Positions 50,062 through 55,941 are shown, counted from the whole stretch's first letter. The stretch: 63,510 bases of DNA, filler included, from Licmophora abbreviata (GCA_900291995.1; 15 parts of 15 records of this genome joined end to end with filler, not necessarily neighbours in it); one strand, 5' to 3'. Program-made: numbers and translations. The notes: generated by a model not told the origin, from the letters alone.

Positions 50062-50138
50062 GGCGGAGTAGCTCAGTTGGTTAGAGCAGCGGAATCATAA
50101 TCCGCGTGTCGGGGGTTCAAGTCCCTCCTCCGCTACCA
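50062..50138 (+). tRNA. tRNA-Met (CAT)
   Basis: Cloverleaf GGCGGAG...CTCCGCT ACCA; anticodon arm GCGGA-ATCATAA-TCCGC; GTTCAAGTC T-loop; TTGACC promoter upstream. Confidence 0.95.
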
Positions 50139-50254
50139 AAAACCCCCTGAAAACAAAGACTTAAGATTTTGGTTGACGCATTTTACGCGTAGCGCACCTG
50201 TAGCGCACTTTTCCGTCGCGCAGCTGCGCTTTTGAGCGTAGAATCGACTGTGTT

Positions 50255-50331
50255 GAACACAGTGTTTGAAACACAGGTTTTGAACACAGTGTTTGGCAAC
50301 AACGTCACGAACACAGTATTTGGAAACACTG
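50255..50331. repeat. Array 1 of the AACACAGTGTTTG-like repeat, period about 13-14 bp
   Basis: AACACAG starts at 50256, 50270, 50283, 50310; AACACTG at 50325. Confidence 0.9.
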
Positions 50332-50346
50332 CCGCAACCCGAGGCC

Positions 50347-51918
50347 ATGCCCAAACTCAGCACCCAAACTGTGACACTGCTGGATGGCGATGTTCGCCTC
50401 TTCAAGCGTGACCGCAGCAGGGCATGGCAGGCAACCTTCAAAATTGATGGGCGTTGGGTGCGTGTTAGCACCAAGTGCAAGCAGCTGGCCGAGGCCAAGA
50501 CGCGGGCTCGCGAGCTTTATGTTGAATACCAAGTGCGCTTGAAGAACGGCCTGCCTGTGATCAGCAAGCGGTTTGCAGATGTAGCTGCCGTCACCATTGC
50601 TGAGATGGACAAGCAGGTGGATGCTGGTGCAGGCAAGAAGAGTTACCGCGATTACAAAATCGTACTTGAGAAGTATTTCATCCCCTACTTCGGGGATCGC
50701 TTTGTCACCAGCATCACTTACGAAGATCTGCAGCAGTTCGCCAAATGGCGTGAGCACAAAATGGGGCATGAACCTCGGGCTTCAACGCTGAACACCCATA
50801 ACTCAGCGCTGAACAGAGTGTTCGATGAAGCTGTGGCGCGGGGTTACATGAACCGTACCCATGTGCCTGTGCTGATCAACAAAGGCAGGGACAGCGAACG
50901 CAGACCGGATTTTCGACGTGAAGAATACCGCAAGATGATTGCTACATTGCCGACCTGGATCAACAAGGGGCGTGATGGCAAATCGCGCGATATGCGCCAT
51001 CTGCTGCGCGATTACATCCTGATCTTGGCAAACACAGGCATACGGCACGGAACAGAGGCGCAGAACCTACGCTGGAAGCACATCCATCTGTTTCAGGAGG
51101 ATGGGCTGGCCTACTTGGAAATGCACGTGAATGGCAAAACAGGGCCACGTGACCTGATGTGCCGGATTGGGGTGATCAATTATCTCAAGCGCATTCAATC
51201 CCGCTCGCCTGACATTGCGGATATGACGTTTGAAGAGCTGCTCAAAGCACAGGTGGACAAGCCCGTGTTCCGCTTGCCCGATGGCACTGTGACCAAAAAC
51301 CTGCGTCAGACTTTTCGGCTGCTGATGGAAGACACTGGGCTGCTGAAATGCCCGCGTACAGGTCAAAGCCGAACGCTGTACAGTTTCCGTCATACCTACG
51401 CGACCTTCGCACTGCTGAACGACGGTATGGACGTGCACACGCTGGCCATTCAGATGGGTACGTCGATCCAGATGATTGAGCGTCATTACAGCCATCTTAC
51501 ACCACGTCTGCGCAAGGACATGCTCACAGGCAAGCGGCATGATCTGCCAGCGGAAGAGTTTCGGCGAAAATACAATGTGCAGTCACATGCTGTGAAACAG
51601 AAAGATTTGGCGGATACTGATCCTGATGCAGTGATCGAACCTGACCTGCCGGAAGAGCCGGAGCCGGATGTTGACCCAGACCTTGACGATCAAGCACATG
51701 ATCAGCCGTTATCTGATCCCACGCCGCCACCAACACCCGCTGAGCGAGCGTTTGATCTGTTTGACGGGGGCAAGCTTGGGGAGGCGGGTCTTTTGGCGGC
51801 AGCTGGTGTGACACGTGACGGGTATGTGCCCAGCGAAGCCATCACGCACCGCGCACTGGACGCTGTAGAGCAAGGCAGGTTGAGCGAAGCTGCTCTGATC
51901 AAGCTGCTGGGGGTATAG
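50347..51918 (+). CDS. Tyrosine recombinase/integrase with acidic C-terminal extension
   Basis: TGIRHGTE (R), GKTG (K), YSFRHTYAT (xxRH), MGTS, HYSHL (Y). Confidence 0.92.
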   Translation: MPKLSTQTVTLLDGDVRLFKRDRSRAWQATFKIDGRWVRVSTKCKQLAEAKTRARELYVEYQVRLKNGLPVISKRFADVAAVTIAEMDKQVDAGAGKKSYRDYKIVLEKYFIPYFGDRFVTSITYEDLQQFAKWREHKMGHEPRASTLNTHNSALNRVFDEAVARGYMNRTHVPVLINKGRDSERRPDFRREEYRKMIATLPTWINKGRDGKSRDMRHLLRDYILILANTGIRHGTEAQNLRWKHIHLFQEDGLAYLEMHVNGKTGPRDLMCRIGVINYLKRIQSRSPDIADMTFEELLKAQVDKPVFRLPDGTVTKNLRQTFRLLMEDTGLLKCPRTGQSRTLYSFRHTYATFALLNDGMDVHTLAIQMGTSIQMIERHYSHLTPRLRKDMLTGKRHDLPAEEFRRKYNVQSHAVKQKDLADTDPDAVIEPDLPEEPEPDVDPDLDDQAHDQPLSDPTPPPTPAERAFDLFDGGKLGEAGLLAAAGVTRDGYVPSEAITHRALDAVEQGRLSEAALIKLLGV

Positions 51919-52015
51919 CCGGTTTCCTTATTGTTTTTACCAGTATGAGACGTCTGGTGACATAAGTTGGCTAATGAAGTTGCGGTTGCCGCCGAATTAT
52001 TTGTAAACTTCTCTC

Positions 52016-52258
52016 ATGATTACGCTTGTTCATCATCACGCAAAGCGGCCCAGCTTCTACCGTGTAGATGTGGGCTACAACCTGTTTGGTGAATATTCCG
52101 TGGTCAGGGAATGGGGCGGTAACGGGCGGAACGGCGTGCACCGCATTGCTTGGTTTTCCAATCTGCGTGATGCAGCACAAGCTGCTGATCGGTGGCACAT
52201 GAAGGCTTGTGCTAAGGGCTACGAACTTACAGATCGAGTGGTGGCCGGAACCGCGTAA
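52016..52258 (+). CDS. Stand-alone WGR-domain protein
   Basis: FY...NLFGEYSVVREWGG.G...K..KGY. Confidence 0.8.
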   Translation: MITLVHHHAKRPSFYRVDVGYNLFGEYSVVREWGGNGRNGVHRIAWFSNLRDAAQAADRWHMKACAKGYELTDRVVAGTA

Positions 52259-52271
52259 GGATTGCTGGCTG

Positions 52272-52838
52272 TCACAGCAATTCGACTGCCTCGCTCAGTT
52301 GCTCTGCGTTCACGTCGATGTAGCGCTGCGTGGTTGAGATATGACTGTGTCCCGCCAATTCCGCAAGCAACCGCACACCCACGCCCTTGTTCGCAAGCCG
52401 CGTGATGTAGGTGCGCCGACCGCTATGGCTGCTGGCGTCCTTGAGCCCCACAGCTTTGTAGATATCGAGAAATAGCTGGCACATGGTGTTGGCTGAGAAA
52501 TGCCCGCCCTTCTGGCTTTCGAACAGCGGTCTGTTTGGATCGCTCAAGTTCAAACCGGCAGCATAATCCGCCAATGCACGGCGTAGCCGTTGGTTGAGGT
52601 ATACAGTGCGTGTCTTACCGCCTTTGCTTTGCATAGCTGACAGGATGAATTGTTCACGCACAGCGCCCACTTCGTCGAACACGTCCCCGCGTTTCAGCGC
52701 GGCGATTTCTTTTGCCCTCAGCCCTGCGTAGAAGCTGAATAGGATGATGGTTTCGTCACGTGTCGGATGACGACGACTGCGGCAGTACTGTATAACCCTA
52801 CGCAGCTGAGCTTCGTTCAATGTCTGTGCTTGGCGCAT
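52272..52838 (-). CDS. Small catalytic-domain-only tyrosine recombinase
   Basis: AGLRAKEI, SKGG, SSHSGRRT, LAGH, TTQRY; 188 aa, no arm or core-binding domain. Confidence 0.9.
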   Translation of the reverse strand: MRQAQTLNEAQLRRVIQYCRSRRHPTRDETIILFSFYAGLRAKEIAALKRGDVFDEVGAVREQFILSAMQSKGGKTRTVYLNQRLRRALADYAAGLNLSDPNRPLFESQKGGHFSANTMCQLFLDIYKAVGLKDASSHSGRRTYITRLANKGVGVRLLAELAGHSHISTTQRYIDVNAEQLSEAVELL

Positions 52839-52877
52839 GGCGCGATCCCCCGAAAACCTAATCATTTGCTACAAACG

Positions 52878-52913
52878 ACTATAAAGTCTGAGGTTTTGGT
52901 TGGTCGACCGAAA
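52878..52913 (-). promoter_or_regulatory. Putative promoter TTTCGGTCGACC-N18-TATAGT for the small recombinase
   Basis: 13-bp core identical to 55334-55346, same spacing to a TAnnnT hexamer. Confidence 0.6.
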
Positions 52914-53034
52914 TTGGTGGAAATTGGTCATGCAATGAATTCAACGACTTAAGTCAAAACCTCATACAATGCGTGTTCTATGAGGTTTTGACAGCTGCCG
53001 CGCAGCACTTGGAAAAGCACGCGGCAGTTGATGT

Positions 53035-53274
53035 TTACAGTTTGCTGTGTGCGCCGTCGCAGAGCGGTTGCTTGCTGCTGTGCTTGCATCCACAGAAGAA
53101 GACCCGCTTGCTGGCATCTGCTGTGTATTTGACGGGTGCGATGCCGGTGTCTTTGTGGCTGCCGTCGCAGAATGGTTGTTTGCTGCTCTTACCGCAGGCG
53201 CACCAGAAGTAGCTTTTGCCCTCTTCGACTTCGACAGGGTAGGGCGCTTTCTGCGCGACAATAGGTGCGGTCAT
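53035..53274 (-). CDS. CDGSH iron-sulfur (NEET-type) protein with two CDGSH motifs
   Basis: WCACGKSSKQPFCDGSH and FCGCKHSSKQPLCDGAH. Confidence 0.92.
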   Translation of the reverse strand: MTAPIVAQKAPYPVEVEEGKSYFWCACGKSSKQPFCDGSHKDTGIAPVKYTADASKRVFFCGCKHSSKQPLCDGAHSKL

Positions 53275-54524
53275 GGGTTCTGTCCTCGTTTGTTTGAGTT
53301 GTTGTTCAAGAGGTAGAGTGTGCTCCGCTGTCTGCAACGCTCTCCTCCCAAATCGCGGAGACAGCGGAGCTGCACGACAACTGAGTTGCCGTGAATGCGC
53401 GGCAACGTGGCACAGGGCAACAAATTGACCAAGCAAAATGTTTTCTCGGCAAAACACTTGATAGATTGGGCCGATAAGCTTTCGTCCAACCGTTATGCTG
53501 CGGACGCAATGCTGCTCTGCAGCGTAGGCGCTTGCGGGTATGACACGTCATACCTATGTCGTCGCCAACGGCAGCTTCTCTCCTNNNNNNNNNNNNNNNN
53601 NNNNNNNNNNNNNNNNNNNNNNNNNNNNTTAATTAATTAANNNNNNNNNNNNNNNNNNNNNNNNNNNNNNNNNNNNNNNNNNNNTGGAGCTGCCGACACT
53701 TTCAAGGCGGCGCACATCTCCTCCCTTTGTGCGTCGCCTTTATTTTTGCCCAACACGTTCCACGCCGTTATTGCCCGTCTTTTGCTTAAGTTGATAAATA
53801 AACATGTAAGGCAAGACGCAACTCAAGGCATCGATACAGGCTACAAACGAGATTAAGGTTGGCACGCCGATGATAATAGTGCTGCAAATCCGTCCTGATG
53901 TGAGGGGGTGAGTAAATCCGAACTGCTCGTTGTTCGTCTTCTTCGCACTACCCTGCCATTGCGCGCAGGATGCCTGAAACGCAATCCCACTGGAGAGACA
54001 TCCTTTATCCTGAAAAATGGAAGAGATTTGACGTTTGCGAAGTCGTAATGGTTGGCCGGGAACGCTCGGCGAAAAGTGACACGGATGACAACCTCGTAAG
54101 AGATCTGTGATGACATGGGACAGCCTTGCTGTGTGGGTCCTATGTTTGCGTGGTAGCTGGTAATAGAGATGATCGCAAAACCTGCTCTTCCCTGAAAAAT
54201 GGGTTCAGTTACACAGCCTGATGCGCGACTGCAGATTGCAGCGATGCGCTTTTAGACCGACGCCCAAAGGGGCGTTGGTCTAATGGCTCAGTGCAGATGC
54301 CAAAAGAAAGTAATTCAAACAAAATCAATCACGTAATTCATTCGATGTGTTTGAGCTCTTCGAGTTGAAAACAAACAGCGGCGATTGAGCTGTGAGGCGC
54401 AGCGACAGCAAGCACGAACAGCAAGAGCAGCACACAGATGCAAAGCAGATGTGTTATAACTCCAAAAAAGATCGCCAATTAAGGCCAGACAAATGGCGAG
54501 ATGACCTATTCGAATGAGGTTATT

Positions 54525-54851
54525 TCAATATTCGTCGGCCAACATCACAGTTAAAACTCGAGCTGTGACAGCTGGATCGCTTGCGTCAGGTGAGTGCATC
54601 GTGAAGTCCAGATCGAAATAGTCAAACTTCCAGAATACGGTTTCTCCGCTATGGCGAAACGAGCCGAAGTCATGCTCGCCATAAGGGTCATTGTTTTTGG
54701 TGAATTCATCAAACAGCTGCACTGCACGCATCATAGCATCGATATCTGGCAATGCTTGTATTCCGGGGGTGATCATGACCCGACAGCCCGTGAAGGTCTG
54801 TCGAGCTTGATCGTTCAATTCACGAATACGGCGGGTTTGGTCCTCTGTCAT
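54525..54851 (-). CDS. DUF3768-like protein
   Basis: IRELND, NDPYGEHDFG, FWKFDY, RVLTVMLADEY. Confidence 0.8.
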   Translation of the reverse strand: MTEDQTRRIRELNDQARQTFTGCRVMITPGIQALPDIDAMMRAVQLFDEFTKNNDPYGEHDFGSFRHSGETVFWKFDYFDLDFTMHSPDASDPAVTARVLTVMLADEY

Positions 54852-55279
54852 TTTGCCGCTCGCTTGCGCTCAACTGCACGAGCGATAACTGCGTCCAGCT
54901 CGCCTGCTTGTGCCGCAGCGCGCAAGGCGTCCAGTACAGCGTCGACCTGTTCAAGCTTGCTGACGAACACGGCGTTGTTCTTGCCGTCCACCAGCAGCAC
55001 ACGCGCGCCATAGCGGCACTGCACATACCAACCGCCATCTTGTTCAAAAAACCAAGGTTTAACCTGCCGCTGTGTTTTCACCTGCACACGTTCGCCCTGG
55101 TCATTTGTCATCCATTTGGCGTGCTCTTTGGCGTAGGTTTCGCCTTCGAGCTTGGCGGTGAGCACCAGCTTTTGCTCGTTCAGTGCTGCCACCAGCTTGT
55201 TGCGCCGTTCATGTACGGGGTCTTTGGCGTCTCCTGCGCGTTCCACAGTCTTGAATGATAGCTTGCTCAGTTGGGTCAT
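54848..55279 (-). CDS. DUF6641-like protein, translationally coupled to DUF3768
   Basis: RRNKLVAALNEQ, PWFF, RYG, GELD; ATGA overlap with the next gene. Confidence 0.65.
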   Translation of the reverse strand: MTQLSKLSFKTVERAGDAKDPVHERRNKLVAALNEQKLVLTAKLEGETYAKEHAKWMTNDQGERVQVKTQRQVKPWFFEQDGGWYVQCRYGARVLLVDGKNNAVFVSKLEQVDAVLDALRAAAQAGELDAVIARAVERKRAAK

Positions 55280-55310
55280 CCGCTTGCTCCTGCATCTGCG
55301 TTACATCACA

Positions 55311-55346
55311 AGCGTATGGTCTCTCCAGTGGTGTGGTCGACCGAAA
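55311..55346 (-). promoter_or_regulatory. Putative promoter TTTCGGTCGACC-N18-TACGCT for the DUF6641-DUF3768 operon
   Basis: Same core and spacing as 52878-52913. Confidence 0.6.
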
Positions 55347-55396
55347 ATCATCACATTTTCAATGGCTTGAGGTTTTCTGGGGCTGGGTAGGGGATA

Positions 55397-55456
55397 AAAC
55401 ACAGTTTTTAAAACACAGTGTTTGGACAACAGTGTTTGACGCCAGTGTTTGAACAC
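55397..55456. repeat. Array 2 of the (AACA)CAGTGTTTG-like repeat, period about 13-14 bp
   Basis: AAACACAGTTTTT, AAACACAGTGTTTG, ACAACAGTGTTTG, ACGCCAGTGTTTG, AACAC. Confidence 0.9.
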
Positions 55457-55484
55457 CGCGCAGTGGCGCGTCAGCTCACAAGAA

Positions 55485-55512
55485 AAGGGGCAGACTGTGA
55501 AGCCTGCCCCTG
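55485..55512 (-). terminator. Intrinsic terminator after the AAA+ gene
   Basis: AGGGGCAG...CTGCCCCT stem followed by a T-run on the minus strand. Confidence 0.7.
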
Positions 55513-55517
55513 ATCGT

Positions 55518-55941
55518 TTATTTGCCAGTATGTGTTGGTACCACCGTCAAGCTGGGCTTAGGCGGCTGCGGTAGTAGACCTTGCCGCAATTGCTCGACCC
55601 CTTCCTCCAGCAGCGGCAGCATATCGCGTATGTCGCCGTTGAAGGTGCTCAGCAACACCCGCAAGTCTTGCGTGCTGACGGTAAAGCCTTCCTGCTGCAT
55701 AATTGCCTTCGCACGTGGCACACAATCCTGCAAGCTCGGCGGTGCTAGTTCTAGACGCTCAAACCTGCTTTGCAGCGCAGGCATGATTTTCTGCTTTACG
55801 CCCTGCACGCCCGGCTGTTCGTTCGTAGTTACTATCAATTTCACCGACTTGTGCTTTTCCATCCATGAACGAAATTTCGGCTGGTCTTGCTCCGCAATTT
55901 CATCGAACTCGTTAATCAACAGCACAGCCGCTCCACACGCC
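55518..55941 (-). CDS. Clamp-loader-clade AAA+ ATPase, C-terminal part
   Basis: VLINEFD (Walker B-like), IVTTN (sensor 1), ALQSRF (SRC-like Arg finger), GDIR (sensor 2). Confidence 0.7.

Follow-up and report, generated by a model that had tools for sequence, protein, structure and literature searches.

The analysis of a 63.5 kb stretch of DNA from the Licmophora abbreviata assembly (GCA_900291995.1; the whole stretch is referred to as the window) led us to the view that the region at 50139-55941 probably constitutes the 5.8 kb next to attL in a genomic island, which lies behind a tRNA-Met gene in a Rhodobacteraceae-like bacterium and belongs to a recurrent, tycheposon-like family of the Alphaproteobacteria. 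The family has a common layout: an inward-facing integrase beside the tRNA, a conserved, convergent recombinase that consists of a catalytic domain only, variable cargo and a core that comprises the DUF3768-DUF6641 pair, a collar-less, RFC-like AAA+ ATPase, its partner of 260-310 aa and a divergent gene of approximately 300 amino acids (aa). Direct observations comprise the genes present, the link between the two contigs that carry the region, the synteny, a 45-bp att sequence that is identical to the 3' part of the tRNA, the tandem accretion at tRNA-Cys and tRNA-Met, the sizes of 11-49 kb, the defence and other cargo, the promoter core and the repeat arrays.

Gene order, att sites and tandem arrays

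The integration target is an intact tRNA-Met gene with the anticodon CAT at 50062..50138 on the plus strand (ARAGORN; Rfam RF00005, 66.6 bits), and the Rfam scan found no RNA family besides tRNA. On the same strand, it is followed by the inward-facing tyrosine integrase of 523 aa (50347..51918; Phage_integrase 27.5 bits; PHROG_1 4.8e-42) and by a WGR-only open reading frame (ORF) of 80 aa (52016..52258; Pfam WGR 1.2e-9; 38.6 bits versus a cut-off of 22). The minus strand carries the short tyrosine recombinase of 197 aa, which has only the catalytic domain (52272..52865; Phage_integrase 2.4e-27, residues 15-188), a CDGSH iron-sulfur protein of 80 aa with two motifs, which belongs to the cargo (53035..53277; zf-CDGSH 1.1e-19; 70.8 bits versus 29.5), the DUF3768 protein of 108 aa (54525..54851; Pfam 4.5e-31; 107.1 bits versus a cut-off of 25), the DUF6641-like protein of 143 aa (54848..55279; 24.7 bits versus the Pfam cut-off of 27; PHROG_31551 7e-17) and the 3' part of the RFC-like AAA+ ATPase gene, whose 140 codons are cut by the contig end (55518..55941; PHROG_168 'clamp loader' 1.7e-10; SRF motif, which is SRC-like). 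The DUF3768 and DUF6641 genes overlap by 4 bases. All eight of the complete ORFs in the island part of the window are intact. An integrative element at tRNA-Met, which the initial annotation of this DNA had proposed, is supported by the intact tRNA, the integrase from 50347 and the complete relatives that are bounded by 45-bp repeats. The genes that it had named, i.e., the integrase by tRNA-Met, the WGR-only ORF, the catalytic-domain-only recombinase, CDGSH, DUF6641-DUF3768 and the AAA+ fragment, were all recovered using ARAGORN, Pfam and PHROGs, and it had also correctly reported no capsid, relaxase, type IV secretion system (T4SS) or transposase in the captured part, as none was found in the nine ORFs that were scanned against Pfam and PHROGs.

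The window is not one molecule; it consists of 15 short contigs that are chained via N44-TTAATTAATTAA-N44 linkers. The region spans the island part of contig c10 (47781-53584) and the whole of c11 (53685-55941), with the linker at 53585-53684, and the initial annotation had named unlinked contigs as a refutation of its proposal. The two contigs are linked. On the chromosome of a Roseovarius metagenome-assembled genome (MAG; G001), the bases that align to 53584 and 53685 sit 3 bp apart, and one 165-aa frame of this genome matches both sides of the gap. Moreover, the first 3,375 bases of a 5,668-bp read-derived contig from sequencing run X1 match 50210-53584, which leaves 2,293 bases beyond the end of c10, where c11 has 2,257 bases; run X1 may be the source sample, and this contig is therefore not independent evidence. 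The conserved stretch that bridges the gap, which both the Roseovarius alignment and the read-derived contig support, lies at 53281..53759 on the minus strand. The order and orientation of c10 and c11 in the window agree with every relative.

The island family is recurrent and not unique to the window, and its order is integrase, short recombinase, DUF3768-DUF6641, AAA+ and a 266-aa partner. The integrase scan, which covered one genome per species, returned 23 loci with 48-88% identity in Roseovarius, Labrenzia, Marimonas, Salibaculum, Marivita, Yoonia, Shimia, SAR116, Parvibaculaceae and other alphaproteobacterial MAGs. A tRNA-Met gene directly preceded the integrase in six of the 13 loci that were scanned for tRNAs, and the short recombinase was found downstream on the opposite strand in 16 of the 23. 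The DUF3768-DUF6641 pair was present in four of the 23 loci within the available DNA, WGR in five (82-94% identical copies in L001, L005, L011, L012 and L015) and CDGSH in one (L011), where it also follows the recombinase; these gene counts are lower bounds, since several loci extend no further than 3 kb from the integrase. Five further elements continue with AAA+ and its partner. The conserved synteny that had been looked for among the integrase and DUF6641 homologues was thus found.

Upstream of DUF6641 and on the same strand, the relatives carry an AAA+ gene of ~265 aa and a partner of 263-313 aa, with the ~300-aa gene divergent from both. AAA+ is directly upstream of DUF6641 in the Natronohydrobacter and Labrenzia copies, as it is in the window. 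The close relative of c11, which was found on two metagenome contigs (L075, L076), is 82% identical in DNA and 84%, 87% and 78% identical in AAA+, DUF6641 and DUF3768, respectively, with the order orf309 (minus strand), orf260, AAA+ (234 aa), array, DUF6641 and DUF3768. The Roseovarius MAG has 14 integrase and nine DUF6641 matches in two regions; in the pieces that were fetched, a recombinase copy follows ten of the 11 full-length integrases, and there are six DUF3768-DUF6641 pairs. Among 301 species genomes sampled from the family of this MAG, the recombinase (E<=1e-50) was present in 10, three of which had multiple copies, PF20346 in 11 and the window-type AAA+ in 3.

Because 45-bp repeats bound the complete relatives, the putative attL core in the window was placed at 50094-50138 on the plus strand, from the anticodon loop to CCA; an identical 45-mer bounds the complete relatives. 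It occurs in four copies in Labrenzia, in two in a Parvibaculaceae MAG and in one without a tRNA on a second contig of a Natronohydrobacter MAG. In Labrenzia sp. R4_2, three perfect 45-bp repeats follow tRNA-Met. Unit 2 of this array carries cytochrome bd and other cargo, while unit 3 (36.8 kb) belongs to the island family with the integrase, recombinase, DUF6641, AAA+ and partner. In the Parvibaculaceae MAG, tRNA-Met and the repeat enclose a unit of 37.4 kb. In the Roseovarius MAG (C1:647908-793064; L039-L046), tRNA-Cys is followed by five more copies of its last 45 bp, again from the anticodon loop to CCA, an integrase follows each of the six copies, and the units are 48.7, 39.3, 17.3, 11.3 and 28.5 kb long. 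The duplicated tRNA-Met 3' end that had been sought is therefore present in the Labrenzia, Parvibaculaceae and Natronohydrobacter relatives, while no second copy of the 45-bp segment was found in the window, where the contig ends inside the element. The label 'small', which had been given to the element, did not hold: the complete att-bounded relatives, which are often in tandem, span 11.3-48.7 kb, and the window has only the attL-proximal 5.8 kb.

Other elements and junctions were met at the same or similar sites. Unit 1 of the Labrenzia array (L067:3759-14912; G306:C25:81759-92912) is a different element of 11.15 kb that has an integrase, a major capsid protein, a lambda-type portal, a large terminase and a helix-turn-helix gene. 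Its boundaries are again the 45-bp tRNA-Met repeats, and it resembles a capsid-encoding satellite. At C1:2429500-2482000 of the Roseovarius MAG (L035-L038), a second element type has integrases of 405-412 aa; its left-end array and integrase are separated by a DUF6880 gene, of which a truncated copy is found ahead of the next unit. The tail of the window integrase (51580-51918, ~115 aa), which is acidic, rich in proline and conserved at its C-terminal end, is common to the tRNA-Met and tRNA-Cys types, whereas integrases of the 405-412-aa class lack it. Another short contig over 50112-50215, i.e., the tRNA end and the first 77 bp of the island, was found in runs X1 and X7 with seven substitutions and one deletion at a similar depth. 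A second related junction exists in these samples, and it could be a tandem neighbour or come from another strain.

The assembly is a mixture of a eukaryote and an associated bacterium. Contigs 1-6 (1-38271, GC ~0.50) encode the eukaryotic proteins Sec15, fasciclin, 1,3-beta-glucan synthase, kinesin, NB-ARC/TPR and a sugar transporter, while contigs 7-15 are bacterial with a GC of 0.64-0.69, except for the island contigs c10 and c11. The chromosomal flank on c10 has 73-75% DNA identity to Roseovarius gahaiensis, and the GC per kb is 0.48-0.55 in the island versus 0.61-0.66 in the flank, with the drop located at the tRNA.

Cis-elements and core proteins

Two arrays of AACACAGTGTT-type units were found on the plus strand. 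Array 1 (50242..50325) has three copies with a 27-bp spacing before the integrase, at -91, -64 and -37 from its ATG, and array 2 (55398..55451) lies between the AAA+ terminator and the DUF6641 promoter. The motif AACACAGTGTTT at <=2 mismatches had 16 matches versus 3.3 expected, a number that was reached by none of 100 shuffles, and 11 of the 16 fall in two clusters, 50255-50321 and 55397-55437, one per contig. L001, L005 and L023 have all three positions of array 1, L002 has two of them, and the close relative L075 retains array 2. A AACACAGTGTT-like cluster is located 123-173 bp inside attR of the Natronohydrobacter element, one perfect unit is 107 bp inside attR of Labrenzia unit 3, and similar clusters occur at the left ends of the B-type units of the Roseovarius MAG. 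The arrays are putative binding sites: they may be arm-type sites of the integrase, which fits their presence near both att arms, or iteron or operator sites for an element protein, which fits their location around the AAA+ module and before DUF6641. A 53-bp copy of array 2 with 94% identity was found beyond the 3' end of orf309 (L076:173-225), so direct array repeats flank the orf309-orf260-AAA+ module. Array 2 was also considered as a marker of attR and rejected, as no tRNA-like 3' segment lies beside it.

The short recombinase and the DUF6641 operon share a promoter core. The core TTTCGGTCGACCA is located on the minus strand at 52901..52913 before the short recombinase and at 55334..55346 before DUF6641-DUF3768, and the exact 13-mer TGGTCGACCGAAA occurs at 52901 and 55334, one per contig. 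In the recombinase promoter, the core holds a sigma-70-like -35 hexamer, TCGACC, which is followed by TATAGT after 18 nt. In 695 kb of family DNA, TTTCGGTCGNCCA at <=1 mismatch had 24 matches, 20 of which are just upstream of the recombinase (11) or DUF6641 (9); the eleven recombinase-linked matches sit 36-50 bp upstream of the ATG, and the core is kept in all eight of the aligned DUF6641 leaders. The initial annotation had described three kinds of private motif on both contigs. The AACACAGTGTT arrays and the promoter core stood, while the IHF-like sites did not: the strict consensus WATCAANNNNTTR has six matches in the window and none in 50139-55941. Based on these shared motifs, the element may have a regulatory circuit of its own.

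Alignments of the short recombinase to the XerC-like, XerA and XerD structures are confined to their catalytic domain (XerD residues 106-287). Its catalytic motifs are intact compared to XerD and XerA (GLRxxE, KGxKxR, HxxRH/R and GHS..TTQxY); the assignment of the R..K..HxxR..H..Y motif follows the residue roles in XerD, which we take to apply here. The protein has no N-terminal core-binding domain and is not of the full two-domain Xer form. It is 68-95% identical across the family, and its conservation exceeded that of the integrase in 18 of 19 comparisons, e.g., 95% versus 64%. Homologues with less than 60% identity were found on 339 plasmids, which fits a resolvase-like role; by annotation, no other core gene was near the best plasmid match, which is on an Azospirillum plasmid.

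Only Walker B and the sequence after it, with SRF, are present in the AAA+ fragment of the window, and a search for longer homologues of this fragment found none. The full-length relative in L075, which is 84% identical and 234 aa long, aligns to residues 5-204 of RFC5 (8.6e-14) and has an EDKYEPQ box that resembles the RFC box II, GPPGTAKT (Walker A), INEFDE (Walker B) and the SRC-like SRF. In these motifs, it resembles the small subunits of the RFC clamp loader. Unlike them, it has no collar domain for pentamer assembly, since its chain extends only to about residue 234 and the alignments reach no further than approximately residue 204 of the 320 in RFC, and it is encoded on a mobile island beside a partner of ~260 aa.

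The DUF6641-like protein has 1007 homologues, all of which are unnamed; those with 85-86% identity carry PF20346 in precomputed tables, and its neighbours in the protein atlas were only 'hypothetical' or DUF6641 clusters. For the 266-aa partner, 139 homologues and no Pfam family were found. The DUF3768 alignment has 44 invariant columns. A PDB sequence search gave no match for DUF3768 or orf309, PHROGs and NCBIfam gave none for the uncharacterised core ORFs, and no primase or replicative-helicase family was found in the core genes using Pfam. PADLOC assigned no defence family to 15 of the 16 core proteins, the AAA+ relative having a weak IetA match (5.9e-4).

Among the remaining features, a 17-nt inverted repeat with 94% complementarity (52953..52992) is located between the CDGSH stop codon and the recombinase promoter, and a terminator-like hairpin with 11 pairs and a T run (55486..55511, minus strand) directly follows the AAA+ stop codon. 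A GC-rich hairpin at 54247-54285, which was read by eye and was not listed by the terminator scan, lies in a 400-bp ORF-free stretch downstream of DUF3768. An 87-aa ORF on the minus strand (53853..54116) had no family in Pfam, PHROGs or PADLOC; a 72% identical piece is present in L015 and a weaker one in L014.

Cargo, possible mechanism and alternative explanations

The cargo of the units in the Roseovarius MAG includes an MmeI-type enzyme with a helicase and T5orf172, a DUF1156/DUF499/helicase set, WYL, an RTX protein, a two-component system, glycosyltransferases and several insertion sequences (IS). That of Labrenzia unit 3 includes a STAND-WD40 protein, a LuxR regulator and an MCP; the first is a 1598-aa STAND-type NTPase with WD40 repeats (L006:12446-17242). 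The Pfam scans of the relatives covered 62, 60 and 61 ORFs of at least 70-80 aa at E<=1e-4 or 1e-3, together with the ORFs at the chunk borders. The family's own units, i.e., those of the Roseovarius MAG and Labrenzia unit 3, gave no match to a capsid, portal, terminase, relaxase or T4SS family, and among the canonical MOB and coupling protein (T4CP) families, there was no match in any of the scanned units. A standard prophage or integrative and conjugative element (ICE) backbone, which had been named as a refutation of the proposed family, was thus found neither in the captured part nor in the complete relatives that were scanned.

For the mechanism, we suggest that the integrase would excise and integrate the element by recombination over the 45-bp core, thereby regenerating the tRNA. 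The RFC-like ATPase and its partner would replicate or maintain the excised circle, and the short recombinase would resolve multimers or tandem copies. Transfer between cells would need a helper (a phage, a gene transfer agent or a conjugative element), which is suggested because no transfer gene is recognisable. In a more specific form of this proposal, the family would be a self-replicating, helper-transferred class in marine Alphaproteobacteria, in which the collar-less AAA+ and the 266-aa partner would assemble on AACACAGTGTT iterons and recruit the host clamp or helicase, while the recombinase, which has the same type of promoter as DUF6641-DUF3768, would resolve multimers and reshuffle the arrays. 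We regard this specific form as speculative and improbable.

One alternative is that the island is a phage satellite, similar to the phage-inducible chromosomal islands (PICI), the virion-encapsidated integrative mobile elements (VEIME) or the tycheposon satellites, that is excised and replicated on infection by a helper and packaged in its capsids, with the core proteins sensing or hijacking the helper. The inward-facing integrase at a tRNA, the small regulated core, the AAA+ with its PHROG 'clamp loader' match and the PHROG match of DUF6641 are all consistent with a satellite, as is the presence of the capsid-, portal- and terminase-encoding 11.15-kb element at the same att in Labrenzia; the tycheposon report (10.1101/2020.12.28.424599) also describes satellite-like members. 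However, none of the scanned units that belong to the island family matched a terminase, capsid, portal or capsid-remodelling family, and their sizes of 11-49 kb are not tied to one capsid size. Moreover, tblastn with DUF6641 gave no match in IMG/VR contigs or 50,697 phage records, and the integrase had no match in the phage records at 1e-10. A satellite is therefore a possible, if unlikely, explanation.

Conjugation would offer another route if the island were an integrative mobilisable element (IME) in which the part of an atypical relaxase or mobilisation protein at an oriT is played by one of the uncharacterised core proteins or by the short recombinase, with the T4SS coming from a co-resident ICE or plasmid. 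The lack of any T4SS family in the scanned units would be expected of such an element, conservation in the family is highest for the short recombinase, related short recombinases are frequent on plasmids (339 records), and IMEs with non-canonical relaxases are known (PMC5704250). Set against this, none of the scanned units matched a relaxase, T4CP or MOB family, DUF6641 had no match on 72,556 plasmids in the tblastn search, and the full Xer-type catalytic motifs of the recombinase fit recombination as well as nicking. We consider mobilisation of this kind to be quite unlikely.

Several observations weigh against the assignment of the region to a family of tycheposon-like islands. Neither attR nor the right end lies in the window, and the closest chromosomal orthologue, whose integrase is 88% identical, is decayed, with an IS21 copy directly after the recombinase and no att repeat in its genome. 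Array 2 is internal and not at an element end, which is a poor fit to a pure arm-site function, and no arm-binding domain was found in the integrase using Pfam. The structural models of DUF6641 (pLDDT 81) and of the 266-aa partner (pLDDT 88.5) were confident but had no informative fold match: the best values for DUF6641 were an E of 0.78 in Foldseek PDB and a Z of 5.4 on helical coils in VIA, and those for the partner were an E of 0.98 in Foldseek PDB, a Z of 6.0 on TetR-C-like helices in VIA and an E of 0.18 in BFVD. The ORFs came from a simple greedy script, and in the relatives, only those of at least 70-80 aa were scanned. Finally, each of the suggested steps, including replication, resolution and helper dependence, is tentative and stands well short of an even chance.

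The first of these points would also be expected if the region were a decaying, immobile remnant, i.e., the left end of an old island that has been kept as chromosomal cargo with CDGSH and other genes. The nearest chromosomal orthologue, which is truncated by the IS21 and lacks the DUF6641/AAA+ core, and the fragments of the integrase and recombinase that are present within the tandem arrays are in line with such decay. The IS21-type pair itself (508 aa and 243 aa, IstB) is present in three copies in the Roseovarius MAG (L033:6860-9114, L037:9252-11503 and L038:5538-7792), one of which follows the short recombinase of the window orthologue. In the window, however, the eight complete ORFs and the tRNA are intact, the promoter cores and arrays are exact, and the contig merely ends within the AAA+ gene. 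In addition, seven sequencing runs, four of which may be the source, contain at least 73% of the sampled words; no RNA run was among those listed. A remnant seems a doubtful explanation, and we continue to regard the region as probably the left end of a tycheposon-like island.

Relation to known systems and significance

The layout resembles that of the tycheposons and that of the tDNA islands of the Islander type. According to their description (Hackl et al., 10.1101/2020.12.28.424599), the tycheposons have an inward-facing, site-specific tyrosine integrase at one end, partial-tRNA repeats, a tendency to accumulate as islands behind tRNAs, adaptation and defence cargo and no capsid or conjugation genes, and related elements were reported in the Alpha-, Gamma- and Deltaproteobacteria. 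The same source gives primase and helicase as their hallmark replication genes, and none of these was detected in the core of the island family, which instead has the collar-less, RFC-like AAA+, DUF6641, DUF3768, the 266-aa partner and a second, short recombinase; the likeness concerns the layout. The tDNA islands of Islander and TIGER (PMC4383910, PMC12424338) share the tyrosine integrase beside a tRNA, the regenerated target gene and the displaced 3' tRNA fragment, which is at the far end in the complete relatives. They are, however, a generic class rather than a family, and these databases may already list such islands without describing the core. The I55 island at tmRNA in Pseudomonas, which is transduced by jumbo phages, also has a tyrosine integrase, direct repeats, defence cargo and no recognised genes for autonomous transfer, whereas its target and host are different and the accessible text (PMC12595487) gives no sign of the conserved core that we describe.

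Satellites such as the PICI and cf-PICI likewise have an integrase at one end, a compact regulated core and att sites at a tRNA or a similar gene that are sometimes shared with other elements. The island family differs from these and from the PICMI in having no recognised packaging, capsid or helper-interference gene, in its sizes of up to 49 kb and in having no match in the viral collections that were searched. For the nine ORFs of the window, neither Pfam nor PHROGs gave a gene for packaging or for redirecting capsids, such as a small terminase, capsid, portal or cpm-like gene. The family differs from an ICE in that no relaxase, coupling protein or T4SS was found in the scans. The full-text literature search found no paper on DUF3768 or DUF6641, the parts of the Roseobacter and Rhodobacterales island literature that were consulted contain no description of the core, and it is not mentioned in the available passages of the tycheposon paper (PMC9618062). 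The family was therefore not found in print, although the supplements of the tycheposon and VEIME papers may list related elements. This agrees with the initial annotation, which had proposed a distinct and possibly undescribed family.

Bacteria of the Roseobacter group and related marine bacteria are models of algal and ocean microbiomes, and the movement of their defence and niche genes is only partly known. In the island family, tandem stacking at tRNA genes of the kind known from tycheposons occurs outside of the cyanobacteria. Its conserved core is composed of proteins that have no recognisable family or fold and of a truncated RFC-like ATPase, an uncommon protein in bacteria. A core that turns out to be machinery for replication, resolution or transfer would represent a new type of mobility module, and the short recombinase together with the 13-bp promoter core would serve as markers for locating such islands. 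Should the islands indeed be self-replicating and transferred by helpers, the tRNA sites would become racks of exchangeable defence cargo.

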